Shown here: piece by piece, positions 3,514 through 34,210 of the stretch
Position numbering within the stretch: the first letter of the stretch is position 1
Layout of the letters: each line of letters opens with the position of its first letter
Virus record (IMG/VR): IMGVR_UViG_3300045454_000008
Coordinates: 1 to 46,481 of that record
Direction: 5' to 3' (one strand)
Origin: a virus
DNA: 46,481 bases
The notes under the pieces: model-generated
Told to the model about the DNA's origin: nothing
The model's input: only the letters and a program-made list of their open reading frames with translations
The model's database searches: none
Made by a program: the position numbers and the translations under genes

Positions 3514-3720
3514 TCATGCCTCGGCGGAAACGTCAACACGCGCCGCAACGACGATGAGGCGGACCAGGAGCAGGCCGCCGGCCAGGACGGCCAGCGCTCC
3601 CCCGTAGTGCCACCCGGAACCGACCGGCCCCAACATGGCGGACAGGAACCCACCAGCCATGAGACCGCCGCCCACGGCGGACACGATCAACCGGCCCAGC
3701 ATCATGGCGGACGGGTTCAC
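3514..3720 (-). CDS. Small membrane protein (two predicted TM helices)
   Basis: 68 aa. Hydrophobic Gly/Ala/Leu stretches LIVSAVGGGLMAGGFLSAML and GGALAVLAGGLLLV. Confidence 0.7.
   Translation of the reverse strand: MNPSAMMLGRLIVSAVGGGLMAGGFLSAMLGPVGSGWHYGGALAVLAGGLLLVRLIVVAARVDVSAEA
3527..3539 (-). promoter_or_regulatory. 13-bp motif copy GTGTTGACGTTTC (inside the 3' end of 3514-3720, encodes R-V-D-V-S)
   Basis: Exact consensus. GAATCT lies 17 bp after TTGACG and is a possible weak -10. Confidence 0.6.
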
Positions 3721-4442: not shown

Positions 4443-4709
4443 CTACGCGAGCACCGCCCGCACGTTGCGGCCCACCGACGACGGGGCGGAGGCGATGAAC
4501 TCCGCCCGCACGCGCGGCATGGGCGGCGTCAGCTGCTCCCCGGTGTCGGCGTCCTCGATGGTCCACAAGCCGTAGCGGCGGGTCAGGAGCGGGTGCGTGA
4601 GCTTGATCCGCAGCTCCTCCACGGCGGACGCCTCGCTCATCGGGCCGGCGTGTCGGCCCCTCTCGCCCGTCATGCCCATCAGGACCGGACGGGCCGTGTC
4701 GATCCTCAT
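4443..4709 (-). CDS. Hypothetical protein
   Basis: 88-aa ORF with a strong RBS (GAGAGGAAGGAACGACG before the ATG). Confidence 0.7.
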   Translation of the reverse strand: MRIDTARPVLMGMTGERGRHAGPMSEASAVEELRIKLTHPLLTRRYGLWTIEDADTGEQLTPPMPRVRAEFIASAPSSVGRNVRAVLA

Positions 4710-4746: not shown

Positions 4747-4794
4747 GCCCGGCGGAGGTCTCGAACCTCCGTACGTCCCTTACCGACTCCGGGC
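4747..4794 (-). other. tRNA-like acceptor/T-arm minihelix in the 5' UTR of 4443-4709 (not a tRNA gene)
   Basis: Minus strand reads GCCCGG-AGTCGGTAAGGGACGTA-CGGAGG-TTCGAGA-CCTCCG-CCGGGC. That gives a 6-bp outer stem plus a 6-bp inner stem and a 7-nt loop matching the T-loop consensus TTCRANN. No D or anticodon arms. Confidence 0.5.
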
Positions 4795-4919: not shown

Positions 4920-5204
4920 CTAAGCGCGCTCCCCTCGCTCGATCAGGGCCGCGCGGGCGCGGAGCCAAACCACGAAGTCCCACTGAGCATCCGTGGTCAG
5001 CACGCCGGGGCCGGCGAAGTGGTCCGCCGCATCCCGTAGGGCCTGGGCCTGGGCGTTCCTCACCGGGTCGCGCTGCGGCGGTTGCGACCGCCTCTCGCGG
5101 CACTCCCGCGATGCGGCGTCCCACTCCTGCACCGTGGCGCAGTCCAGGTGGCCGCACCAGCCCACGACCCCGCACAGGCGGCGGACGGGTTCCTCCTTCG
5201 TCAC
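4920..5204 (-). CDS. Hypothetical Cys-containing protein
   Basis: Trimmed from ORF 4920..5639 to GTG 5204 (GTGA overlap with the stop of 5201-5341). 94 aa, VTKEEPVRRLCGVVGWCGHLDC... The upstream part of the track ORF is Gly/Arg/Pro noise. Confidence 0.6.
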   Translation of the reverse strand: MTKEEPVRRLCGVVGWCGHLDCATVQEWDAASRECRERRSQPPQRDPVRNAQAQALRDAADHFAGPGVLTTDAQWDFVVWLRARAALIERGERA

Positions 5205-5341
5205 TTGCCCTCGATCTCCCTTCGCGTCTTGCCGCAGTACGCGCACACCAGCCCGGCAGCGCGCGGCACCAGGTGGTGAGTCGAGTTGTCCGCACCCTCC
5301 GGCGCGCCCGACTCGGGGCAGTACATTTGCGTAGCTTCCAT
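5201..5341 (-). CDS. 46-aa zinc-ribbon-like micro-protein (below the ORF-track cutoff)
   Basis: Reads MEATQMYCPESGAPEGADNSTHHLVPRAAGLVCAYCGKTRREIEGK. Strong RBS GAGGAGGAGTC before the ATG. High GC3. Confidence 0.55.
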   Translation of the reverse strand: MEATQMYCPESGAPEGADNSTHHLVPRAAGLVCAYCGKTRREIEGK

Positions 5342-5389
5342 GACTCCTCCTCGCTGATGGGTTCCGGGCAATCATCGCAGGCCGGCGGA

Positions 5390-5683
5390 TCACTCCTCCG
5401 TCAGGGCCTCGACCACCTCGGACCAGTTCACGCGCCACAGGCTGCCGACCTCGTGGGCCATCATCTCGATGCCCTCCGGCTGGGCCGTGCCGTACATCTC
5501 GCGGTACTCGGCGGGGTTCAACAGCTCCTCCACCTGCCCCCGGACGGCCCGCTCCTGGTCGTCCGGGTAGTCCCGGACGATCTGGCGGAACATCTCGTAC
5601 AGGCCCTGGTCGTTGTTGATGTGGAGCATGAGCGCCCACGTCTCGCGGTTCGTCCAGCCCTGGTAGGTCTCGTCCGTGCCCAT
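5390..5683 (-). CDS. Hypothetical protein (WTNRETW motif)
   Basis: Trimmed to ATG 5683 (GAGAGGTGAGGACG upstream). 97 aa, acidic. Confidence 0.7.
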   Translation of the reverse strand: MGTDETYQGWTNRETWALMLHINNDQGLYEMFRQIVRDYPDDQERAVRGQVEELLNPAEYREMYGTAQPEGIEMMAHEVGSLWRVNWSEVVEALTEE

Positions 5684-5716
5684 CGTCCTCACCTCTCGGT
5701 CTCGGTTACTGCCTAC

Positions 5717-5761
5717 GTGCGGCCCCGGGACTCGCACCCGGTATGTCTGCTAGCGCCGCGC
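5717..5761 (-). other. Weaker tRNA-like minihelix in the 5' UTR of 5390-5683
   Basis: Minus strand reads GCGGC-GCTAGCAGACATA-CCGGG-TGCGAGT-CCCGG-G-GCCGC. Same architecture as 4747-4794, but the loop is TGCGAGT (position 2 deviates from the T-loop consensus) and the stems are shorter. Confidence 0.3.
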
Positions 5762-5861
5762 CACCTCTCACGGTTGGCGGATACTGCACCTGCTATCCAG
5801 CGTTGCCTTTCGTCTAGCGCCGGCCCTGCTGCCCTGCCTCCCTCCCCTCTCGCCTGTCTCT

Positions 5862-5893
5862 AGTGTGGCACAGGTGTTGCGCTACGTCAACAC
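5862..5893 (-). promoter_or_regulatory. Leftward promoter candidate with overlapping 20-bp palindrome (O2, 5874-5893)
   Basis: Minus strand: GTGTTGACG-N17-CACACT. The plus strand at 5874-5893 reads GTGTTGCGCTACGTCAACAC. Sits at the start of a roughly 200-nt leader. Confidence 0.5.
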
Positions 5894-13408: not shown

Positions 13409-16400
13409 GTGGAGGTTCCGCCTGTGGCTACCGAGACCACGTTCTACACGCGCGTTGGTGCTGCGGCCCAGGCGGGCGCCCCCATCGGTTCGTCCGTTGA
13501 CATCGCCCGCACCGTCCCCACGAACCGTGCCGCCCAGTCCGCTGGCCGTGCCATCGCTCAGTCGGGGCAGTCGTTCTTCCAGCCGGGCGCCACCCTGAAC
13601 GCGAACCGCGAGGTGGTCCGCGAGGAGGAGGCGCCGTCGTTCTGGGACCGCGTGGGCGGTGTGGTGTCCGGGGTGGGCCGGCCCGTCCTCCGCGCCCTGG
13701 AGTGGGGCACGGAGGCTACGGGCAACATCGCGGAGACGAATCTCCGCACCATCTACGGGCGGGTGTCCCAGGGTGACGTGGGCGGAACCCTGAAGTCCCT
13801 GCTCCTGTCCCCCCTGGCCGATGACGAGTGGCGGGACAACTGGGACCGGGTGGTCAAGGCCCAGGCTTCCATCGGGCAGACCGCGTGGCTGGTCGCCGAG
13901 GACGCCGCCGATAGCCTCGGCCTGTGGGACGCCGGCACGTCCGGTTCCGGCATGGAGGACGAGCAGGGCAACATCGTGGGTCCGCGCGTTCGCTCGCGCG
14001 GCCTGGACCTGCTGGACGACCCGACCCGTCGCGCCGAGCGGCAGGAATACTTCAGCGAGGGCATGGCCCACTGGACTACGGGTGTGGGTGATGCCCTGTG
14101 GCAGGTGTTCGCTGACCCGCTGATCGTGGCCGGTGCAGGGGCCGGTGCCGCCCGCCGGGCGGCCTCCACTCTGAAGGCCGACGACGTGGCCCGGGTGGCT
14201 GACCGCAGCCTGGATGCTGCGGAGCTGACCAACAAGCAGGCCCGTTCCCGGGACCTCGTGCGCCAGTTCGCTGAGGCGTTCGAGGACGCCGGGGCTGGCA
14301 CCGTGTCCAACGCCGCCCGCACCCGCTACCTGAAGAACTCCACCGACGGTGGGGCCATCGCCTACTTCATGGGCCGGGCCGGGGAGTACGCGGACGACGC
14401 GGCCTCCCGGATCGAGCTGCGCGAGGACATCATCTACGCGGGCATGGGCGACAAGGCCGCCCTGGAGCGGGTCGGCCAGCGGGCCGAGCTGCTGCGCGTG
14501 GAACTGGACAAGATGAACGCGCCCCTGCGCGACCTGCCCGACGGTGACGAGCTGGTGCGTGCGGTGGACGCCACCGACGACGACCTCATGCGCCTGGCGT
14601 CAGAGAGCGTCGCCAAGGCGACGGATTCCCCCGTGATCTCCCGGGAGCTGAAGGCGCAGGAGTCCCTGATCCGTAAGGATCTGGAGGCCCTGTCTCGGAT
14701 CACCGAGGTGGGCCGGCCCGTGGCCGGCGTGGACTCGGGTGTGGGTGGCCTGGCGAACATCCCCGCGACGCGGGCCGGTGCCCGCCGTGACGTGGCCCGC
14801 ATCACGAAGACCCGCCAGTACGGGCAGTTCCTGGAGCCGGTGCAGTACGTGACCGGGCGTCACCTGCCGGGCACGTTCAAGCTGTCCGACGACGACGCAG
14901 GGAACGTGTTCCACGAGGCCGTGCTGCGTGCGCGGCGTGTGGCGACCGGCCTGGCCGGTGACCAGCGGGAGGCGTTCACGGCGGCCCTGAAGGGCCTGGA
15001 GGACGAGTTCCTGGCCGCTGGGATCGGCGCCCAGTCGAAGGCTGCGCGCGGCACCATCGTGGCCCGCTTCGACTCCCTGGTGGACGAGGTGATCGCCGCC
15101 AAGTACGGGGTGGACAAGGACGCGCTGGGCGCGGTGCACTCTGCGGTCCGTGGCCGCCGCAAGGCGACCATCCAGGCTGTGGCGACCCGTGCCTACCAGG
15201 CGCGGTCCGCGAATCAGGTGGAGGCGCTGCACGCCGGGGACGGCGTGTTCGCCATCGCCCCGGATGCCAAGTGGGTGGAGGATCTGGGGCGGCCTGTGGC
15301 CCGCTCGCAGATCGAGGACTTCGTGTCCATCATCGACCCGCGCCTGCTGGACCGGTTCGCCCAGAACCACTTCAAGGACGGCATGTCCGGGTTCGCCAAG
15401 ATGCGTGCGAACGTGGACCCGCGCCGCCTGCACGGCACCCGTGCGTGGGAGGTGACCGAGCACGCGCTGTCGGTGATGAACCGGGCGTGGAAGTTCGGTG
15501 CGCTGCTGCGCCCGTTCGCCTACTTCGTCCGCGCCCAGATGGACACGCAGGCCCGGAACCTGGCGATGCTGACTCCGCTGAAGTACATGGCGGACGCTGG
15601 GCGCAGCGGCTTCGTCAATCTTCCGGCGAACTTGCGCAAGATGGACAAGGGCGAGGCCCTTGCCCTGTCGCAGCGGTTCTTCGCACACCAGCGCATCGAC
15701 GAGATCGAGGACGCGCTGGCGCGCGGGATCGACGACGAGGCCCTGGCGAAGGAGCTGGCCGACCTGAAGGAGGCCGTCGCCAAGCCGGTTACGTTCAAGC
15801 GTACGGGCGAGAAGGTTCGCGTCCGTGACACGGAGGCCGCCCGCATTCGAGGCAAGTCGGCCCGGATCGACCGCCAGGGCAACTACACGGCCCCCAGGGC
15901 CAGGGATGCCTACCGCTCCACGGACGAGTTCAAGCGAGTCGTTGCATCGTTCGACGCCGAGGACTCCATCCTCGGGTTGCTCACCGGGTCCACTCGGGGG
16001 CAGCTGGACTCGATGCGCCGCTCCGGGCGGTGGGACCTCATCCGAGGTTCCGACGCCTCCTGGGACACGGCGTACATCCGCGCGGTGAACAACCAGATCC
16101 GATCCGACGCTCTCGGCCAGCGGCTCCTCGCCGGCCAGACGGACGAGGAGATCCTGGCCTGGTTCAAGAACGACCCCGAGGGCATCAAGTACCTGCGGGA
16201 CATGCGGGCCACGGGCGCCGAGTCGGGCGCCGTGGTGGTGGCCCGGTTCCGTGACCACATCGACACGCTGCTGCCGGAAGGTTCGGCTGCGAGGTCGGTG
16301 GCCCTGGAGCGTAGCATCACCGCCAAGGAGATCAAGGAGATGTGGCCGGTCCCGTCGGACCGCCCCCACGTCCCCGGCGAGATCCTGGACGAGAACTGGA

Positions 16401-18229
16401 CGCGGCCCGTGGCCGCTGCCTACGAGTCCATCGAGCGACGCTACTTCCAGTGGGTCGCGCAGATCCCGGAGAACATGATGGGCCGGCACCCGCTGTACGC
16501 GGGCCGGTTCGAGGTGCACGCCAAGAAGCTCATCGAGCAGACGGGCCTGGACGAGGCGACCATGACCCTCGGCCAGATCAACGACGTGCGCCGTGCCGCC
16601 GACAGGTTCGCCCGTCGGGACATCGGTCGGTACATGTTCGACACGTCCAAGCAGACCAACATCGGCCACATGCTCCGCTTCGTGTCCCCGTTCTACGGGG
16701 CATGGGAGGACACGATGGTCAAGTGGGCCAGGATCTTCGGGCAGCACCCGGAGATGCTGGCGCTGGGCTGGAAGGTCGCCCGCTCCCCGAACGCCGCCGG
16801 GCTGGTGGTGGACGAGGACGGCAACCAGATCGACCCGCTGGGCAACGTCCGCGACCGGAACACGGGCGAGGTGATCGGCCAGAAGGGGATGTGGGACGGG
16901 TACGTGGTCCTGCCGATCCCCGGTCCGCTCCAGAAGTGGACGGGCGCGAAGGACGTGCGGATCGCCAAGAACGCGGCGAACGTCATCTTCCAGGGTGACC
17001 CGTGGTTCCTGCCCGGCCCCGGCCCGATGTTGGCCGTGCCCGCCAACGAGATCATCGTCAACTCCTTCCCGGAGGTGTGGGGCGAGGAGGGATCGGAGAA
17101 CCCGATCCTGAAGTGGATTCTGCCCTACGGCCCCACCTCGGACAGCGTGGCCGAGCAGGTCATGCCGTCCTGGGCGAAGGCCGCGAAGGACGCACTCACC
17201 CAGGACTCGCGCCGCGTCGACCAGGTGTTCACCCAGCTGTACATCGAGCAGGTGAACGCCGAGCGCAACGGTGAGTCCGACCCCATGTCGGACGACGACC
17301 GCATGGACCTCATCGCCAACCGCACCCGAAACTGGACGCTCCTGCGCCTGTTCGGGACGCAGATGCCGTTCACGTTCACACCCCAGTCCCGCCTCGGCTT
17401 CTACAAGTCGGAGTGGGACCGCTACCGCCGCGAGTTCGGGGCGGACGCGGAGGAGCGGTTCGCGCAGGACTACCCCGAGTATTTCGACATGGCGATCAGC
17501 CTGTCGGAGTCGGAGACGGGCCTGCGGGCAACCGACGAGTCGTGGGGCGCGATCCAGGCGTACCGCAACGACATGGCGAAGCACCCCGAGTACGGGTGGT
17601 TCTGGGCCGGCGCGGCGAACCTGGCCGACGGGTGGTCGCAGGGCGTCTACCACGCCCAGCTCCGCCAGGAGGTCGGGCCTGGGACGAGCACGCACTTCCG
17701 GCGGCGCAAGGACCCGCTGGAGGCGGCTCGTGAGGCGATGGTGTCCCAGGGCTGGCGGGAGTACCAGCAGATCAGCACGGCGCTGGACCTGAAGCTGGAG
17801 GAGCGGGGGCTGACCTCGCTGCGACAGACCGGGGCCGAAGACCTTGCGGCGATCCGCGAGGAGTTCGTGCAGGAGCTGTCGGTGCGCAACCAGGACTGGG
17901 CCGCGGCCTACCGCGAGGGCGGGAATCCGGGGAAGGTCACCGAGTTCCTGACGCTGGCGATCGACCAGTTCAACTCCCACCCCGAGCTGATGTCTCGCGG
18001 TGACGGCGCTGCGCTTGCGCAGTACCTGGAGATCAGGAACGCCATCAAGTCGAAGATGGCCGAGCGTGGCCTGTCTTCGATCAACGCCCAGGGCAACGCG
18101 GACCTGCTCGAAATCTGGGAGCAGGCAACGGCGGAACTCCGCCAGGACGTGGGGTTCGACCAGATGTGGACGCGAGTGCTCTCTCGTGACGACCTGTCCG
18201 GTGAGACGTATGCGAAGGAGGCTGGCTGA
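13409..18229 (+). CDS. Giant (about 1600 aa) putative internal virion/ejection protein
   Basis: Single uninterrupted 4.8-kb ORF directly after the portal module and before the scaffold and capsid genes. The likely true start is GTG 13424, 8 nt after GGAGG. No polymerase or tape-measure motifs were recognised. Confidence 0.8.
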   Translation: MEVPPVATETTFYTRVGAAAQAGAPIGSSVDIARTVPTNRAAQSAGRAIAQSGQSFFQPGATLNANREVVREEEAPSFWDRVGGVVSGVGRPVLRALEWGTEATGNIAETNLRTIYGRVSQGDVGGTLKSLLLSPLADDEWRDNWDRVVKAQASIGQTAWLVAEDAADSLGLWDAGTSGSGMEDEQGNIVGPRVRSRGLDLLDDPTRRAERQEYFSEGMAHWTTGVGDALWQVFADPLIVAGAGAGAARRAASTLKADDVARVADRSLDAAELTNKQARSRDLVRQFAEAFEDAGAGTVSNAARTRYLKNSTDGGAIAYFMGRAGEYADDAASRIELREDIIYAGMGDKAALERVGQRAELLRVELDKMNAPLRDLPDGDELVRAVDATDDDLMRLASESVAKATDSPVISRELKAQESLIRKDLEALSRITEVGRPVAGVDSGVGGLANIPATRAGARRDVARITKTRQYGQFLEPVQYVTGRHLPGTFKLSDDDAGNVFHEAVLRARRVATGLAGDQREAFTAALKGLEDEFLAAGIGAQSKAARGTIVARFDSLVDEVIAAKYGVDKDALGAVHSAVRGRRKATIQAVATRAYQARSANQVEALHAGDGVFAIAPDAKWVEDLGRPVARSQIEDFVSIIDPRLLDRFAQNHFKDGMSGFAKMRANVDPRRLHGTRAWEVTEHALSVMNRAWKFGALLRPFAYFVRAQMDTQARNLAMLTPLKYMADAGRSGFVNLPANLRKMDKGEALALSQRFFAHQRIDEIEDALARGIDDEALAKELADLKEAVAKPVTFKRTGEKVRVRDTEAARIRGKSARIDRQGNYTAPRARDAYRSTDEFKRVVASFDAEDSILGLLTGSTRGQLDSMRRSGRWDLIRGSDASWDTAYIRAVNNQIRSDALGQRLLAGQTDEEILAWFKNDPEGIKYLRDMRATGAESGAVVVARFRDHIDTLLPEGSAARSVALERSITAKEIKEMWPVPSDRPHVPGEILDENWTRPVAAAYESIERRYFQWVAQIPENMMGRHPLYAGRFEVHAKKLIEQTGLDEATMTLGQINDVRRAADRFARRDIGRYMFDTSKQTNIGHMLRFVSPFYGAWEDTMVKWARIFGQHPEMLALGWKVARSPNAAGLVVDEDGNQIDPLGNVRDRNTGEVIGQKGMWDGYVVLPIPGPLQKWTGAKDVRIAKNAANVIFQGDPWFLPGPGPMLAVPANEIIVNSFPEVWGEEGSENPILKWILPYGPTSDSVAEQVMPSWAKAAKDALTQDSRRVDQVFTQLYIEQVNAERNGESDPMSDDDRMDLIANRTRNWTLLRLFGTQMPFTFTPQSRLGFYKSEWDRYRREFGADAEERFAQDYPEYFDMAISLSESETGLRATDESWGAIQAYRNDMAKHPEYGWFWAGAANLADGWSQGVYHAQLRQEVGPGTSTHFRRRKDPLEAAREAMVSQGWREYQQISTALDLKLEERGLTSLRQTGAEDLAAIREEFVQELSVRNQDWAAAYREGGNPGKVTEFLTLAIDQFNSHPELMSRGDGAALAQYLEIRNAIKSKMAERGLSSINAQGNADLLEIWEQATAELRQDVGFDQMWTRVLSRDDLSGETYAKEAG

Positions 18230-20280: not shown

Positions 20281-21372
20281 ATGAGAGTCGGCTCTCGCGG
20301 AAGTAACGTTCGGGCCTTGCAGCAGCAGCTGGCCGCTGCCGGGTTCAACCCCGGGCCGATCGACGGGATATTCGGCGCCCGCACGGCGTCAGCGGTGCGC
20401 GCATTCCAGAGCGCCAGGGGCCTGAAGGTGGACGGCATTGCCGGGCCGCAGACGATGGGCGCCCTCGGAGGCGGCGGCGGCGGAGGGGCGGCCCCTGCCG
20501 CGCCCAGCGCGCCCACGATCGAGCAGCAGGAGCTGGCCGCGCGCTACGGCTTCGCGATGGCCGTGCTCAACTCGAACCCGGAACTGAAGTCCCTGTTCAA
20601 CAGGGCCGTGGCCCAGACGTACACCCCGGAGCGCTTCCAGGCTGAGCTGCGCGGGACGCAGTGGTTCCAGAAGACTTCGGAGAATCAGCGCAACGCGCAG
20701 ATCCTGAAGGCCGCCGACCCGGCGACCTACCAGAAGCGCATGGAGCAGGTCCGCACCCGGATGCTGATGATGGCCTCCGAGATGGGTGCGGTGATCCCGC
20801 AGAACCACATCGACTCCACGGCCAACCATTTCCTGACCTTCGGCTACGACGACAACCAGATCCGCCAGCACCTGTCCCACTGGGTGAGGTTTCAGGACGG
20901 GCGGATGCTGGGGCAGGCCGGCCAGTGGGAGACGGAGCTGCGGGCCTACGCCCAGGACATGGGTGTGAACCTCTCGAACAACGCCATCCAGCACTACGTG
21001 AACCAGGCTGCTGGCGGGCGGATCACCTTCGATGACGCCCTCGGCAACGTGCGCAAGATGGCGGCCTCCGCCTTCCCGCACCTGGCCGACCGGATCGCGG
21101 CAGGCGAGACGGTGGCCGACATCGCTGACCCGTATCGGCAGACGATGGCGCAGCTGCTGGAGATGAACCCGGAGTCGATCACCCTGGCCGACCCGACGAT
21201 CAAGCAGGCGCTCCAGGCGAAGGGGCAGGACGGCAAGCCGGTCCTGCGGACCCTGTACGACTTCGAGAACGACCTGCGCCAAGACAAGCGATGGCTGAAG
21301 ACGAAGGGGGCGCAGGACGCGGCGATGGCGACCACTAATCGCGTCCTCAAGGACATGGGGCTGGTGTCCTGA
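20281..21372 (+). CDS. Peptidoglycan-binding-domain protein (virion module)
   Basis: AAGGAGG RBS. The N-terminus GSRGSNVRALQQQLAAAGFNPGPIDGIFGARTASAVRAFQSARGLKVDGIAGPQT matches the PG_binding_1 pattern. Confidence 0.7.
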   Translation: MRVGSRGSNVRALQQQLAAAGFNPGPIDGIFGARTASAVRAFQSARGLKVDGIAGPQTMGALGGGGGGGAAPAAPSAPTIEQQELAARYGFAMAVLNSNPELKSLFNRAVAQTYTPERFQAELRGTQWFQKTSENQRNAQILKAADPATYQKRMEQVRTRMLMMASEMGAVIPQNHIDSTANHFLTFGYDDNQIRQHLSHWVRFQDGRMLGQAGQWETELRAYAQDMGVNLSNNAIQHYVNQAAGGRITFDDALGNVRKMAASAFPHLADRIAAGETVADIADPYRQTMAQLLEMNPESITLADPTIKQALQAKGQDGKPVLRTLYDFENDLRQDKRWLKTKGAQDAAMATTNRVLKDMGLVS

Positions 21373-22220
21373 TGGCTACTTCAACTGACCCGTTCGGCGG
21401 CCTGGAGGGCGCCGACCGTGACGCCTACCTGGCGATCACGAACACCCTGAAGGCATACGGCCTGGAATCCCTTGCCCCGTCCGTGCTGGGCTTCATCCAG
21501 CAGGGCTACTCCGCCGACACGATCAACGTCCTGTTGCAGCAGTCCCCGGAATACAAGAAGCGCTTCGCGGCCAACGAGGCCCGGCGCCAGAAGGGGCTGC
21601 CCGTCCTGTCGCCCGCCGAGTACCTGGCGACGGAGCGGTCCTACCGCCAGGTCATGGCAGCCGCCGGGCTGCCGGTCGGCTTCTACGACGAGCCGTCCGA
21701 CTTCGAGAACTGGCTGGCGAACGACGTGTCCCCCGTTGAGGTGCAGGAGCGTGTCAACCTAGCCGCCGACTTCATCAACACCACCGACCCCGGCGTGCTG
21801 GACACGATGCGCCAGTGGTACAGCGACGGTGACCTGATCGCCTACGCGCTGGACCGTGACCGTGCCACCCGGGTGCTGGAGCGTCAGTTCCAGGCGGCCC
21901 GCATCGGTGACGCCGCACAGGACCAGGGCGTGGGTATCGACCGGGGCCTGGCGGAGCGGATCGCTGACACGGGCGTGGACGCCAACCAGGCCCGCCAGGG
22001 CTTCGGCACCGCCGCCGCTGTGGGCGCCAACGCCGCTCGCCTGTCGGAGGTGTACGGCGGTTCGTACACCCAGGAGGACGCCATGAACGAGGTGTTCTTC
22101 AGCGACGAGCAGGCCGCGCGGAAGCGTCGTGGGCTTGCCTCGCAGGAGCGCGCCCAGTTCTCCGGCGGTGGTGGCATCAACGAGCGGTCCCTGTCCACGC
22201 GCCAGGCGGGACAGGTCTAG
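21372..22220 (+). CDS. Hypothetical virion-module protein
   Basis: 282-aa ORF with a TGATG-coupled start. Confidence 0.7.
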   Translation: MATSTDPFGGLEGADRDAYLAITNTLKAYGLESLAPSVLGFIQQGYSADTINVLLQQSPEYKKRFAANEARRQKGLPVLSPAEYLATERSYRQVMAAAGLPVGFYDEPSDFENWLANDVSPVEVQERVNLAADFINTTDPGVLDTMRQWYSDGDLIAYALDRDRATRVLERQFQAARIGDAAQDQGVGIDRGLAERIADTGVDANQARQGFGTAAAVGANAARLSEVYGGSYTQEDAMNEVFFSDEQAARKRRGLASQERAQFSGGGGINERSLSTRQAGQV

Positions 22221-22226
22221 CAGTAC

Positions 22227-22274
22227 GGAGCGGGACGGTCTTTACGGGGGTTCGACTCCCCCGCCGCTCACCCA
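22227..22274 (+). other. tRNA-like acceptor/T-arm minihelix (not a tRNA gene)
   Basis: Reads G-GAGCGG-GACGGTCTTTA-CGGGGG-TTCGACT-CCCCCG-CCGCTC-ACCCA. The 6+6 bp stems could stack coaxially, the loop matches the canonical T-loop, and the 3' tail is ACCCA. There are no D or anticodon arms, and no 5' acceptor partner lies at tRNA distance. Confidence 0.5.
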
Positions 22275-22294
22275 ACACGGACCGGCCGGCCCTC

Positions 22295-22325
22295 GTGTTG
22301 CGATCCCCAAGACCGGTAGTACGAG
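22295..22325 (+). promoter_or_regulatory. Possible internal promoter before the scaffold and capsid genes
   Basis: GTGTTGCGA-N16-TACGAG. The -10 lacks the final T. Preceded by inverted repeat CAACACG...CGTGTTG (22274-22300). Confidence 0.3.
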
Positions 22326-22390
22326 CTGCCCACCCTTCCCCTGGGGCTGGGCACGGCGTGCGATTCACACAGAAAAGGGAGAGGCCCCAA

Positions 22391-22915
22391 GTGGCTGAGT
22401 TCAACGACATCGACCTGACCGACGACCAGCACGACGACTCCGACCTCGTGCGCCAGCTCCGCAAGCAGCTGCGCGACAAGGACAGGGAGCTGAAGGCGGC
22501 GCTGGGTGAGGTTGAGGCGTTCCGCACGCAGACCGTCGAGTCCGCCATCAAGGACGCTCTGAAGGGTGTCCCGGAGGACCGCCGGGCGAAGGTGGAGAAG
22601 CTGATCCGCAAGGAGGCGAAGACCACCGAGGACGTGCAGACGTGGCTGGACGAGTACAGCGACGTGTTCGACATCCGTCAGGGTGTTGACGTTTCTGGCG
22701 CTGAGACCGCCGGAAACGCCGCTGAGAGCGGCGAGGAGAGCGCAGGTGTGGACCCGTCCACCCGGGCCGCTTTCGAGGCCGCACAGCGCACGGAGGCGGG
22801 TGCCGGTGCACCCGTTCACGCGGGGCCTGAGCGCATCAAGCGACTGCTGGCGGAGACCAGCGGTGGCTATGACGCGGTGATGCAGAAGCTGCGCGAGGAA
22901 GGCCTCGCGCAGTAA
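22391..22915 (+). CDS. Scaffolding protein
   Basis: Trimmed to GTG 22391 (GGGAGAGG upstream). 174 aa, acidic and coiled-coil-like. Lies immediately upstream of the capsid gene. Confidence 0.6.
   Translation: MAEFNDIDLTDDQHDDSDLVRQLRKQLRDKDRELKAALGEVEAFRTQTVESAIKDALKGVPEDRRAKVEKLIRKEAKTTEDVQTWLDEYSDVFDIRQGVDVSGAETAGNAAESGEESAGVDPSTRAAFEAAQRTEAGAGAPVHAGPERIKRLLAETSGGYDAVMQKLREEGLAQ
22683..22695 (+). promoter_or_regulatory. 13-bp motif copy GTGTTGACGTTTC (mid-gene, encodes G-V-D-V-S)
   Basis: Exact consensus with no -10 downstream. Confidence 0.55.
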
Positions 22916-22945: not shown

Positions 22946-23914
22946 GTGGCTAACGAGTACACGTCGATCGCCACGCAGCCGGGGATCGCAACCGAGCTGG
23001 TGCAGGACGTTTGGGACACGGCTGTCAAGTGGGCGCTCCGCGAGCTGCCCACCTGCCGCCAGTTCGTGGACGTGCGCCCGCAGGCCCCGATGTCGCGTGG
23101 CTCCAGCATCACGCTGGAGAAGGCCAACTGGTTCTCCGACGCGGTGATCTCCGCGATGAAGACGCCGCTGTCCGAGGAGCTGGACGTTGACTCCACCAAG
23201 CTTCCTCAGCCGTCCAAGGTCACCATCACGCCGAACGAGTACGGCGGCGCGGTCACCCAGACGCGGAAGCTGTCGGAGCGGACGTTTGCGCCCGTGGACC
23301 CGATCGCGGCGCAGAACATCGCTGACGCGATGAACCGCGTCATCGACTCGCTGGTGCAGGACACCGTGATCGCCGGCACGTCCGCCGTTCTCATCGGCGG
23401 CGGCGCGGGCATCAACGACGTGACCGGCACCGACGAGCTGACCGCCGCCGAGGTCCGCAAGGCGGTCACCCGCCTGCGCGCCGCGAAGGTGTCGGCCTGG
23501 TACGGCAACTTCTACGCGGGTGTCGTTCACCCGCACGTCGTCCTGGACCTCCGCGAGGAGACCGGTGCCGGCGGCTGGCGGGTGCCGAACGAGTACGGCG
23601 CCTCGCAGGAGCGCATCTGGAACGGGGAGGTTGGCGAGTTCGAGGGCGTCCGGTTCGTGCAGAACGCGCTGGTCCGCACCGAGATGAACACCGCCACCAC
23701 GCCGAACCGCGTCTACCACAACTACATCCTCGGTCGGGGCGCCCTGGCCGAGCAGGTGTTCGTGGAGCCGCACGTCGTCGTGTCGCCCGTCACCGACAAG
23801 CTGGGTCGTTTCCACACGATCGGGTGGCACGGCGACCTGGGCTTCGCGGTGTACGAGACGAAGGCTGTGCAGCGCCTCGTGTCCGGCTCCTCGCTGGGCG
23901 GCGACGCTCTCTGA
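22946..23914 (+). CDS. Major capsid protein (HK97-fold type inferred)
   Basis: GTG follows AAGGAAGG. 322 aa. Supported by its position after the scaffold gene and by the strong hairpin after its stop. Confidence 0.7.
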   Translation: MANEYTSIATQPGIATELVQDVWDTAVKWALRELPTCRQFVDVRPQAPMSRGSSITLEKANWFSDAVISAMKTPLSEELDVDSTKLPQPSKVTITPNEYGGAVTQTRKLSERTFAPVDPIAAQNIADAMNRVIDSLVQDTVIAGTSAVLIGGGAGINDVTGTDELTAAEVRKAVTRLRAAKVSAWYGNFYAGVVHPHVVLDLREETGAGGWRVPNEYGASQERIWNGEVGEFEGVRFVQNALVRTEMNTATTPNRVYHNYILGRGALAEQVFVEPHVVVSPVTDKLGRFHTIGWHGDLGFAVYETKAVQRLVSGSSLGGDAL

Positions 23915-33171: not shown

Positions 33172-34210
33172 GCATTCCCTCCAGGCTGACAACATTCTCA
33201 CGCGCCACGGGGAACATCGGCTTTCCCCTGAGAATGTCGTCCCGTCGCTTCTTGTCCAGATGGATGCCGAGATAGATTTCCGTCGTGGTGACGGAGGCGT
33301 GGTGCAACATCGACTGTACGGTACGCATCGCCCCGTCGTAACCGGTTTCAACCAGTTGGTCGAACAGGGCGCGTGCGCCGGAACGGCGCAGGGTGTGCAT
33401 CCCCTCGGACTCGGACTTGCCGTTGGACTGGCGCAAGTCGTAGCCCGCATTGGCGAGGACGCGCTGCACGGTGCGCTCCGCCTGACCCACCGGCCGGGTG
33501 GGGTTCAGTTGCGCGTTGCGCTTGGCAGCCTCGGCGTTCTGGGTGGGTGTCAGCCCCTTCGTGAACAGCGGCGGGGTCTTGGCCGGGACAAGGTAGTCGT
33601 CGGGCCGCAGGGGGCGGCCCGCGTTGAGCGAGTAGAACGCCAGCCACGACCTCAGCTCGGCGTCCAGCTCTGCGCTGATCGGCATTCGGTCCGTCTGCTT
33701 CGTCTTGATGACGGTGACGAACACCTCCCCCACGTCCAGGTTCACGTCACCCACGCGCAGGTGCCGCATCTCGGACTGGCGCAGGAACAGGAACAGGCCG
33801 AGGGCCACCATGATCCGGTCCCTCGGATGGCCGGCTGCCCCGAGGAGCCGGGGGAACTCCGCCGCCGGGACGCGCAGGCGCTCCCGCCTGGCGACCTTGA
33901 ACGGGCGGCGGTGCACCACCGGGGAGGACCCGGAGGGGACGTAGCGGCGCTGCTCTGCGTAGGCGAACAGGGCGCGCAGCCCTGCCCGCTCGCAGTTCAG
34001 CGACGACGGCGCCAGGCCCTTCGCCTGGCGTGTGGCGAAGAACCCGTCGATGTGGCGGGGGGTGACGTTGCGGGCCTGGATGTTGCCGACGTACGTCAGC
34101 AACTCACGTGAAGCCCGGATGTAGTTGGTGACGGTGGCCTTGGAGTAGGCGTTGGATCGCAGCGTTTCCTCGAACTCGTCCACGAGGTCGCTCAGGAGTG
34201 AGGTCTTCAT
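33137..34210 (-). CDS. int: Tyrosine integrase
   Basis: LFLRQSEMRHLR (catalytic Arg box), HTLRRSGA (HxxR), LHHASVTTTEIYL (H...Y). ATG 34210 follows GGGAG; a GTG at 34216 is an alternative start. Confidence 0.9.
   Translation of the reverse strand: MKTSLLSDLVDEFEETLRSNAYSKATVTNYIRASRELLTYVGNIQARNVTPRHIDGFFATRQAKGLAPSSLNCERAGLRALFAYAEQRRYVPSGSSPVVHRRPFKVARRERLRVPAAEFPRLLGAAGHPRDRIMVALGLFLFLRQSEMRHLRVGDVNLDVGEVFVTVIKTKQTDRMPISAELDAELRSWLAFYSLNAGRPLRPDDYLVPAKTPPLFTKGLTPTQNAEAAKRNAQLNPTRPVGQAERTVQRVLANAGYDLRQSNGKSESEGMHTLRRSGARALFDQLVETGYDGAMRTVQSMLHHASVTTTEIYLGIHLDKKRRDDILRGKPMFPVARENVVSLEGMRGEAEDNRRVV

Follow-up and report, generated by a model that had tools for sequence, protein, structure and literature searches.

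The DNA examined here, positions 1 to 46,481 of the IMG/VR virus record IMGVR_UViG_3300045454_000008 (the window in what follows, 46,481 nucleotides [nt] in all, with a G+C content of 68%), raises the question of what a transfer RNA (tRNA)-like minihelix that cannot decode is doing in the middle of a late structural operon. The element is 45 nt long (22228-22272, plus strand) and is built of an acceptor-like stem, a linker, a T arm, the returning strand of the stem, and a tail. It lies inside a long rightward late operon, between a virion-module gene and the leader of the scaffold and capsid genes, all of which are on the same strand. As judged by comparison with relatives, the minihelix is real and conserved. 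We give an even chance to the reading that it imitates the top half of tRNA or transfer-messenger RNA (tmRNA) and serves as a cis processing site at which the late transcript would be cut to free the scaffold/capsid mRNA.

An earlier reading of these letters, referred to here as the original prediction, had described a canonical T loop and two abutting 6-bp stems that form a 12-bp stack. These can be read directly in the sequence, and the minimum free energy (MFE) fold contains exactly the abutting 6+6 bp stems, followed by a hairpin (22273-22300) formed by the CAACACG...CGTGTTG inverted repeat that had also been pointed out. Two details of that description need adjusting. The start had been placed at 22227, six nt past the TAG of the upstream gene; the helix begins at 22228, separated from the TAG (22218-22220) by 7 nt, CAGTACG. 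The tail had been taken for a discriminator followed by CCA; C22273 and A22274 begin the next hairpin, so the free tail is a discriminator plus CC, and tails across the family are N-CC or N-CUCC. The T loop, TTCGACT closed by a G-C pair, has the features of a tRNA T loop (T54-T55-C56-R57-A58, with G53-C61) and sits on a 12-bp stack. A GG at 22237-22238, linker positions 4-5, is conserved in the family. With neither a D stem nor an anticodon arm, the element cannot decode.

On the evidence of the window alone, the case for such an element is weak, since dinucleotide shuffling of the window yields a T loop with two abutting stems in 37 of 300 cases under relaxed settings (12%) and in 11 of 300 when a strict 6+6 arrangement is required (3.7%), and the fold energy is ordinary for DNA of 68% G+C (z = -0.13). 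A nucleotide search of the window region against 50,697 phage records gave zero matches, and relatives were therefore reached through the 282-amino-acid (aa) protein encoded just upstream of the element (phrog_8424). This protein is 41-46% identical to proteins in 29 Streptomyces phage records. Protein searches also found closer relatives, at 68-74% identity, including some that carry orthologues of the window element, and 160 further loci were taken from metagenomes and IMG/VR and scanned with ARAGORN. Synteny was anchored across the relatives by the phrog_8424 homologues (41-74% identity).

Many loci without a tRNA have, in the same place, a minihelix with the architecture seen in the window. 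Examples are GGATCG-AATGGTTGTA-TCGAGG-TCCGATT-CCTCGA-CGATCC in locus L005, GGGGTG-ATCGGCAGCA-CCTGGG-TTCAAGC-CCCAGG-CACCCC in L090, and GTGAAG-CATGGTGACA-GGCCGG-TTCGACT-CCGGCC-CTTCAC in L018. A curated alignment of seven sequences, trimmed to the helix ends, is 97.6% paired and has double-sided changes in 8 of the 12 pairs; slid controls give 45-58% pairing. The covariance model made from it (R1) added syntenic members from outside the seed (L049, L018, L033, L056, L023, L010, and L022). The model was then rebuilt from other phages with the window left out (R2), and this leave-one-out model scores the window element at 53.3 bits (E ~1e-10). The second-best site in the window stops at 20.5 bits, real tRNAs reach 27 bits at most under the family model, and the window orthologues L172, L169, and L174 reach 42-56 bits. 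The final alignment comprises 18 distinct minihelices, in which 97.6% of 210 cells are paired and compensatory changes occur in 9 of the 12 pairs (61 cells); its covariation score is 0.760, compared with at most 0.179 when partners are slid. The original prediction had named a lack of conserved structure in related phages as one outcome that would count against it, and the structure has turned out to be strongly conserved.

The family is defined by an acceptor-like stem, an 8-15-nt linker with GG, a T arm, and an abutting 3' strand, upstream of the hairpin that opens the leader (hairpin 1); all of these are present in the window. Its two loop-proximal T-stem G-C pairs are invariant in 18 of 18 members, and the other four pairs of that stem covary. 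The linker GG occupies one aligned position in 16 of 18, preceded by 2-3 purine-rich nt, and may be interpreted as an analogue of G18/G19 that locks the elbow. The stack is 12 bp long in 12 members, 11 bp in four, 13 bp in one, and 10 bp in one, and it is divided as 6+6 in the window and L169, 7+5 in L172, and 5+7 in L174 and L120. Twelve base pairs is the combined length of the acceptor stem and T arm of tRNA, the "ruler" for ribonuclease (RNase) P, RNase Z, and the CCA-adding enzyme.

Two sets of close relatives show how the element changes over short distances. L005, L007, and L008 have a neighboring gene that is 81-88% identical and a downstream leader that is 95-100% identical. Their minihelix cores differ at 2-3 of 29 bases and their acceptor-like stems at 4-6 of 12, every change being compensated, so pairing rather than sequence appears to be selected inside a single minihelix lineage. 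All three (L005 4875-4915, L007 1614-1654, L008 1346-1386) have the T loop TCCGATT, with C for the universally conserved U55; their stems still covary. Among the orthologues of the window element, L172 reads GAAGCGG-ACGGTCTTCAG-CGGGG-TTCGACT-CCCCG-CCGCTTC-ACCC and L169 reads GGAGCG-ATGGTCGCAG-GCGGGG-TTCGACT-CCCCGC-CGCTCC-ACCC, while L174 has the 5+7 version. The same architecture recurs over lineages whose proteins range from 41% to 74% identity.

By model scores and anatomy, the element is not a tRNA, a tmRNA, or a member of the mascRNA family. ARAGORN finds 0 tRNA and 0 tmRNA genes over the whole window, and Rfam gives no match in the window at gathering scores, RF00005 included. With just 11 nt to separate the T stem from the preceding acceptor strand, a canonical tRNA gene is rejected, as the original prediction had held. 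It had also held that there is no 5' acceptor partner at tRNA distance; a second GAGCGGT does occur at 22182-22188, inside the upstream open reading frame (ORF), and could form 7 bp with GCCGCTC (22263-22269). Through this copy, cmscan at relaxed thresholds aligns the site in the manner of a tRNA-Sec, with 16.7 bits (E 1.2) where the gathering score is 47. That fold was rejected as sub-threshold and without an equivalent second copy in L005, the sole relative checked, and the distal partner is probably a coincidence. The tmRNA model (RF00023) has no match in the window at its gathering score or at E up to 10. The third stem pair of the window element is G-C and its discriminator is A, so the alanine identity of G3.U70 with A73 is incomplete, and a linker of this length leaves no room for a P2 helix; lacking G3.U70, P2, and a tmRNA score, the element is not a tmRNA. 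The mascRNA-menRNA model (RF01684), whose gathering score is 42.5, gives 15.8 bits (E 1.6), which falls short of membership. Exact-word scans of IMG/VR for either minihelix of the window returned nothing, and in short-word BLAST comparisons of the intergenic region with the tRNA arrays of relatives only the T loops matched, so that no parent tRNA can be named. The motif GGTTCRANYCC occurs four times in the window, against 0.58 expected; the other sites (20342, 27364, and 43593) were rejected because R2 detects none of them, and 43593 has no flanking stems.

Across the relatives, the slot between the phrog_8424 gene and the scaffold/capsid genes is filled by a tRNA array, one tRNA, a tag-less mini-tmRNA, a minihelix, or a -10-like hexamer. 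According to ARAGORN, some loci have 15-22 tRNAs there in an array, others a single tRNA (Asn, Met, Trp, Pro, Leu, Tyr, or Arg), and the rest none. In the Streptomyces phages Manuel, Immanuel3, FlowerPower, and Kumquat, it holds 19-24 annotated tRNA genes (19-22 by ARAGORN), with Pro first and Val last. Exchange is also seen at short range: L006 and L009 have a full tRNA-Asn where the near-identically flanked L005, L007, and L008 have a minihelix, and the closer relatives of the window L170, L171, and L173 have a tRNA with anticodon CAA in place of the minihelix. These CAA tRNAs, called Leu (L170 2561-2634, L171 1613-1687, L173 2544-2618), are only 74-75 nt by ARAGORN and lack the long variable arm that a bacterial-type tRNA-Leu usually has. 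Three-armed, D-armless, or degenerate tRNA-like forms occur in L017 and L154 (both D-armless and three-armed), L087, and L088.

Two loci carry a tag-less mini-tmRNA in the slot. The one in L091 (5359-5440, 82 nt) scores 50.3 bits with the Rfam tmRNA model, above the gathering score of 47, although ARAGORN reports no tmRNA, and it aligns to the model from end to end through the acceptor stem, D-loop analogue, P2 helix, and T arm, with a 13-nt loop replacing the mRNA-like part. For a similar 81-nt element in L173 (2410-2490), the score is 35.5 bits (E 9e-13). G3.U70 and A73 are present in both elements, and their D-loop analogues, UAUGGUU and AAGGUUU, resemble the 5' half of minihelix linkers (AAUGGUU, GACGGUC). 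Judged by their predicted folds, the common denominator of the tRNA, D-armless form, mini-tmRNA, and minihelix in this slot is the tRNA top half.

Whatever fills the slot is followed by a leader of ~120 nt (22273-22390 in the window), conserved across the family and composed of hairpin 1, a CCGGTAG motif, a two-part helix 2, GCGA, and a ribosome-binding site (RBS). The same layout stands behind the last tRNA of the large arrays. RNAalifold predicts 17 pairs in the leader, 12 of them with compensatory changes. The loop of hairpin 1 keeps the consensus GGAYCGACCGGCCCC in ~50 distinct loci, and its stem covaries, three pairs having 4-9 double changes each; a loop so nearly invariant suggests a protein-binding site. 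Helix 2 encloses a C-rich CCCCUnCCCCUGG loop, by which the ribosome-binding site, GGGAG, could be masked. The last paired base of a minihelix and that of a real tRNA lie alike 9-11 nt from the hairpin 1 loop.

Where hairpin 1 occurs without a tRNA-shaped element, 11 of 14 loci have a TAnnnT hexamer that ends 8-12 nt before the loop; some of the 14 are related, which leaves roughly 8 independent cases. No such hexamer is found in 12 minihelix loci or in 20 tRNA loci. The hexamers (TAGAAT, TACTCT, TACAGT, and others, in L041, L058, L069, L108, L119, L121, L123, L128, L134, L160, and L164) are accompanied by weak -35 matches. They are candidate late promoters for the capsid operon, as read from their sequence and position. 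The original prediction had suggested an internal promoter ahead of the scaffold and capsid genes of the window itself; a sigma-70 consensus scan finds none near either minihelix, and the hexamers belong to other phages, where they stand instead of the element. A role for the hairpin 1 loop motif as a repeated promoter was also rejected, with 19 matches against 13 expected, and the copies read at 3617, 3684, and 40605 have no flanking stems. The features of the window are collected in Table 1.

Table 1. Features of the window around the minihelix, with the second candidate minihelix
Feature	Position	Strand	Basis or remark
Upstream late gene, 282 aa, phrog_8424, function unassigned	21372-22220	+	ORF list; PHROG match 4e-92; stop TAG 22218-22220
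Hairpin CCTGTCC-(12 nt)-GGACAGG over last codons of upstream gene	22190-22215	+	45-nt upstream fold z = -2.1
Minihelix, acceptor-like stem, 5' strand GAGCGG	22228-22233	+	Covaries with 22264-22269 over 18 sequences
Minihelix, 11-nt linker GACGGTCTTTA, in place of D arm, anticodon arm, and variable region	22234-22244	+	
Minihelix, T arm: 6-bp stem CGGGGG (22245-22250)/CCCCCG (22258-22263), 7-nt loop TTCGACT (22251-22257)	22245-22263	+	
Minihelix, acceptor-like stem, 3' strand CCGCTC	22264-22269	+	Abuts T stem with no gap, giving a 12-bp coaxial stack
Minihelix, single-stranded tail ACC, discriminator-like A plus CC	22270-22272	+	Between minihelix and next hairpin
Hairpin 1: stem CAACACG/CGTGTTG, conserved loop GGACCGGCCGGCCC	22273-22300	+	MFE fold, family comparison
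Helix 2: GTACG...CGTGC around TGCCCA...TGGGCA, with C-rich loop	22319-22361	+	RNAalifold, 15 sequences: 10 pairs, 9 compensatory
RBS GGGAGAGG	22377-22384	+	Read in the sequence
Scaffold-like gene, phrog_7813, start GTG 22391	22391-22915	+	ORF list, PHROG
Major capsid gene, phrog_1357 (major head protein)	22946-23914	+	PHROG match
Second candidate minihelix GCCCGG-AGTCGGTAAGGGACGTA-CGGAGG-TTCGAGA-CCTCCG-CCGGGC-G, 6+6 bp, 17-nt linker	4747-4794	-	R2 20.5 bits, E 0.016; MFE fold

Because tRNAs, mini-tmRNAs, minihelices, and a -10-like hexamer fill the slot interchangeably, at a fixed distance from the leader, a role of the RNase P/Z type fits the comparative data best. Of the roles put forward in the original prediction, the RNase P/Z processing signal stands as the best-fitting proposal, and an attachment-type scar falls away (see below). 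The scaffold/capsid mRNA seems to begin at hairpin 1, with a 5' end that would be made either by initiation or by cutting beside a tRNA-shaped element, and this favors a cis-acting tRNA mimic. The location is also that of plant mitochondrial t-elements and of mascRNA, a non-decoding tRNA-like fold between segments of one same-strand gene block.

From the observed anatomy, conservation, covariation, synteny, and spacing, we infer transcription through the site, each cleavage, and an effect on mRNA stability, as follows. The minihelix would fold within the late polycistronic transcript. Host RNase P, which needs only a tRNA-length acceptor/T-arm minihelix, would cut between G22227 and G22228. 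A second cut, at or just after the discriminator A22270, would be made by an activity that processes tRNA 3' ends (RNase Z, or RNase E with exonucleases). The mRNA of the upstream minor protein would in this way be parted from the scaffold/capsid mRNA, whose new 5' end would be hairpin 1 with 2-4 unpaired bases. Capped by a hairpin, this end may resist 5'-end-dependent RNases, and the capsid message would then accumulate. Real tRNAs, the tag-less mini-tmRNA, or a promoter directly at hairpin 1 would take over this task in sister phages. The upstream fragment may have protection of its own: the hairpin over the last codons of the upstream gene is a possible 3'-terminal protective hairpin, on weak evidence from folding. 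For 9 of the 15 family members folded, the structure predicted for the preceding 45 nt stops 0-1 nt short of the element, with strong hairpins in seven (for example L005, L007, and L008, L090, and L018); as a family rule, such hairpins have partial support, the mean z being only -1.2.

Several points weigh against this reading. Three of the 14 relatives without a tRNA-like element also lack a recognizable -10 hexamer, and at promoter-type loci the predicted start sites fall at or slightly inside the hairpin 1 stem rather than exactly at the tRNA 3'-processing point. Going by the Bacillus subtilis enzyme, an N-CC tail disfavors RNase Z; the tails of the family may thus do so too, which makes the 3' cut the least secure step. 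Alignments fitted by a covariance model favor the structure of the model, and the first seed members were chosen by eye, though synteny, and not the fold, had led to them; the curated alignment, the within-lineage changes, and the stack lengths are independent of fitting. Covariation among distant members could be inherited in part from different parent tRNAs, an objection that L005/L007/L008 and the window with L172 and L169 counter, each within its own lineage only. Finally, the slot could merely be a place where small-RNA genes are tolerated and well expressed.

The closest functional analogue of the element appears to be the plant mitochondrial t-element. In those mitochondria, tRNAs and t-elements define mRNA 5' and 3' ends, with RNase P and RNase Z proposed as the enzymes (Forner et al. 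2007, PMC1920247). t-elements are likewise non-decoding tRNA-like folds with a GGTTCRANYCC T-loop motif, located in polycistronic transcripts, and real tRNAs act at other genes. Unlike the phage element, they are organellar, form a non-canonical cloverleaf, and have mapped RNA ends, the phage element being known from sequence and unrelated to them in it. The mascRNA of MEN-beta (RF01684) is a tRNA-like structure cut by RNase P and RNase Z, which forms the 3' end of the upstream RNA and releases a small RNA. It shares with the phage element a tRNA-like structure inside a long transcript, but it belongs to a eukaryotic nuclear long noncoding RNA and has a full cloverleaf-like fold with an analogue of the anticodon arm.

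Synthetic acceptor/T-arm minihelices are minimal substrates of bacterial RNase P and of the CCA-adding enzyme; the RNase P substrates are reportedly treated by McClain, Guerrier-Takada, and Altman in 1987. They too present a 12-bp coaxial acceptor and T stack with a T loop, but as laboratory constructs with a continuous helix, whereas the phage element is natural and conserved, and its bulged linker of 10-11 nt contains a GG like that of a D loop. For jakobid mitochondria, a "reduced form of tmRNA" is mentioned (PMC3590771). The tRNA-like domain of tmRNA resembles the phage element in its acceptor stem, stem-less D-loop analogue with GG, and T arm; the window element differs in having no P2 helix, G3.U70, encoded CCA, tag frame, or score at the Rfam threshold. 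The arrays of Manuel, Immanuel3, FlowerPower, and Kumquat share its slot, strand, and downstream leader architecture, but they consist of many tRNA genes thought to decode or to evade defence, while the window has only an anticodon-less mimic.

The alternative that survives best, though we regard it as rather unlikely, is that the element is a gene for a small trans-acting RNA. The minihelix of ~45 nt would be excised like a tRNA, may receive CCA, and would draw off, as a decoy or sponge, the host factors that read the tRNA top half. The targets proposed are SmpB and trans-translation, EF-Tu, the CCA-adding enzyme, and abortive-infection toxins acting at the acceptor end, and its place in the operon would be one convenient for expression and processing. 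The slot does otherwise house genes for trans-acting RNAs, namely tRNAs, and in two lineages (L091 and L173) a tag-less tmRNA-like domain, whose D-loop analogue the minihelix linker resembles. A second candidate minihelix lies in another transcription unit (4747-4794), and the acceptor stem evolves fast and yet stays paired, which would suit an arms race as well as a structural signal. No identity set is conserved, however: besides the mini-tmRNA-like L091 and L173, G3.U70 is found in 1 of 18 minihelices (L092) and is absent from the window, the discriminator varies, and CCA is not encoded. That a bare promoter-like hexamer, or a tRNA of any identity, can substitute for the element points to a cis role of the slot. 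A trans-acting RNA and the processing model are compatible rather than exclusive.

More doubtful still is a broader form of this idea, in which the slot would define a new class of anticodon-less tRNA/tmRNA top-half mimics, ranging from the 81-82-nt mini-tmRNA to the 45-nt minihelix, that are excised, act as decoys in trans, and also punctuate the capsid mRNA. Candidate targets would be SmpB and trans-translation or acceptor-end toxins of the AbiE/MenT nucleotidyltransferase type. If this held, an arms race would have left its mark in the acceptor stem, whose sequence turns over rapidly but with every change compensated.

It is improbable that the element is a non-functional relic, left from a tRNA, an array, or a mini-tmRNA by internal deletion and decaying neutrally in a tolerant gap. 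Gain and loss are frequent here, with 0 to 22 tRNAs exactly at this place in relatives, L017, L154, L087, and L088 carry three-armed or degenerate forms, and the window motif alone, with its ordinary fold energy, is within reach of chance. Neutral decay should nevertheless break pairs. The 18-member alignment is instead almost fully paired, with many double changes, and the architecture is the same over lineages far apart in protein identity. Within lineages all changes are compensatory, the 12 bp being held even through a shift from 6+6 to 7+5, and the T loop and linker GG are conserved.

A local hairpin with some other role, such as a factor-independent terminator, an attenuator, or a translational element of the upstream stop, whose likeness to tRNA would be accidental, is very improbable. 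The element is indeed a strong G+C-rich two-stem structure 7 nt past a stop, between gene blocks, but the bases past the stem (ACCCAACACGG) contain no U tract, and a scan of 21900-22700 gives no terminator-like site. The T loop is tRNA specific, the G53-C61-like pairs are invariant, the linker GG and the 12-bp length are conserved in the family, and real tRNAs replace the element in sister phages.

Phage attachment (att) sites are often copies of part of a tRNA or tmRNA gene, the T arm with the acceptor 3' strand, and the 3' half of the element looks like one. An att core or integration scar matching a host tRNA or tmRNA 3' end used as attB, a possibility for which the original prediction had proposed a comparison with host tRNA genes, is nonetheless hardly credible, given that the exact 25-mer GGGGGTTCGANTCCCCCGCCGCTCA (T arm plus acceptor) occurs in no actinobacterial genome and in just 2 of 185,579 species genomes, both Chloroflexota metagenome-assembled genomes, and in nothing scanned in IMG/VR; that the 5' strand, which an att core does not need, is present and covaries with the 3' strand; that the site lies mid structural operon, with no integrase among the 20 window proteins scanned; and that Manuel has no annotated integrase and Abafar, a related podovirus, is described as virulent and without lysogeny genes.

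The second candidate minihelix sits in a gap of ~210 nt between the minus-strand ORFs 4920-5639 and 4443-4709. Real tRNA parts reach 20-27 bits with R2, which leaves its membership in the family uncertain. About 95 nt upstream, TTGACA-17 nt-TACCGT was read by eye and was not called by the promoter scan. The flanking ORFs have no PHROG family and no IMG/VR relatives. A minus-strand feature annotated "tRNA-OTHER" in the early region of Manuel (34092-34163) might be its counterpart.

By its proteins, the window is a relative of the virulent-type Streptomyces podophages and is Beephvirinae-like; the Streptomyces phage relatives examined (Manuel, Immanuel3, FlowerPower, and Kumquat) are all Beephvirinae. 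Plus-strand genes of the window encode a terminase, a portal, a 1606-aa virion-module protein, peptidoglycan hydrolases, a scaffold-like protein, and the major capsid protein. The 1606-aa ORF (13409-18229), between the portal and hydrolase genes, belongs to phrog_10618 (function unassigned) and has no Pfam domain; its counterpart in Manuel is gene 10. No RNA polymerase is annotated in Manuel. A scan of genome contigs with the 282-aa protein found no relative and hence no prophage context. Cellulomonas sp. WB94 has a homologue of the 282-aa protein (P0050, 59% identical), annotated on a plasmid of 329 kb, which suggests either relatives of this phage group beyond Streptomyces or a plasmid-borne or prophage-like copy. 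In L056, a group I intron match (RF00028, 53.3 bits, gathering score 50) lies at 5654-5890, ~1.9 kb downstream of the minihelix and probably within the capsid-region genes.

The searchable full-text literature on phage tRNA-like elements and Beephvirinae contains no account of such a phage element that we could find. tRNA-like processing elements are already known; what would be new here is one in a phage, reduced to a 12-bp minihelix. The covariance model can be used to annotate elements that tRNA finders have overlooked, and the slot offers a natural series for the study of tRNA recognition in vivo, from tRNA through the D-armless form, the tag-less mini-tmRNA, and the 12-bp minihelix to a promoter. 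If the processing reading is correct, the element would be a phage counterpart of the organellar principle of tRNA punctuation and t-elements, a minimal mimic whose sole use would be to attract the tRNA-processing enzymes of the host, so that the capsid message is freed and stabilized. The exact placement of tRNA genes and arrays in this large group of actinobacterial podophages would then have a second explanation, in which their processing would shape the late mRNA, besides any part that the tRNAs have in decoding or in countering host defence.

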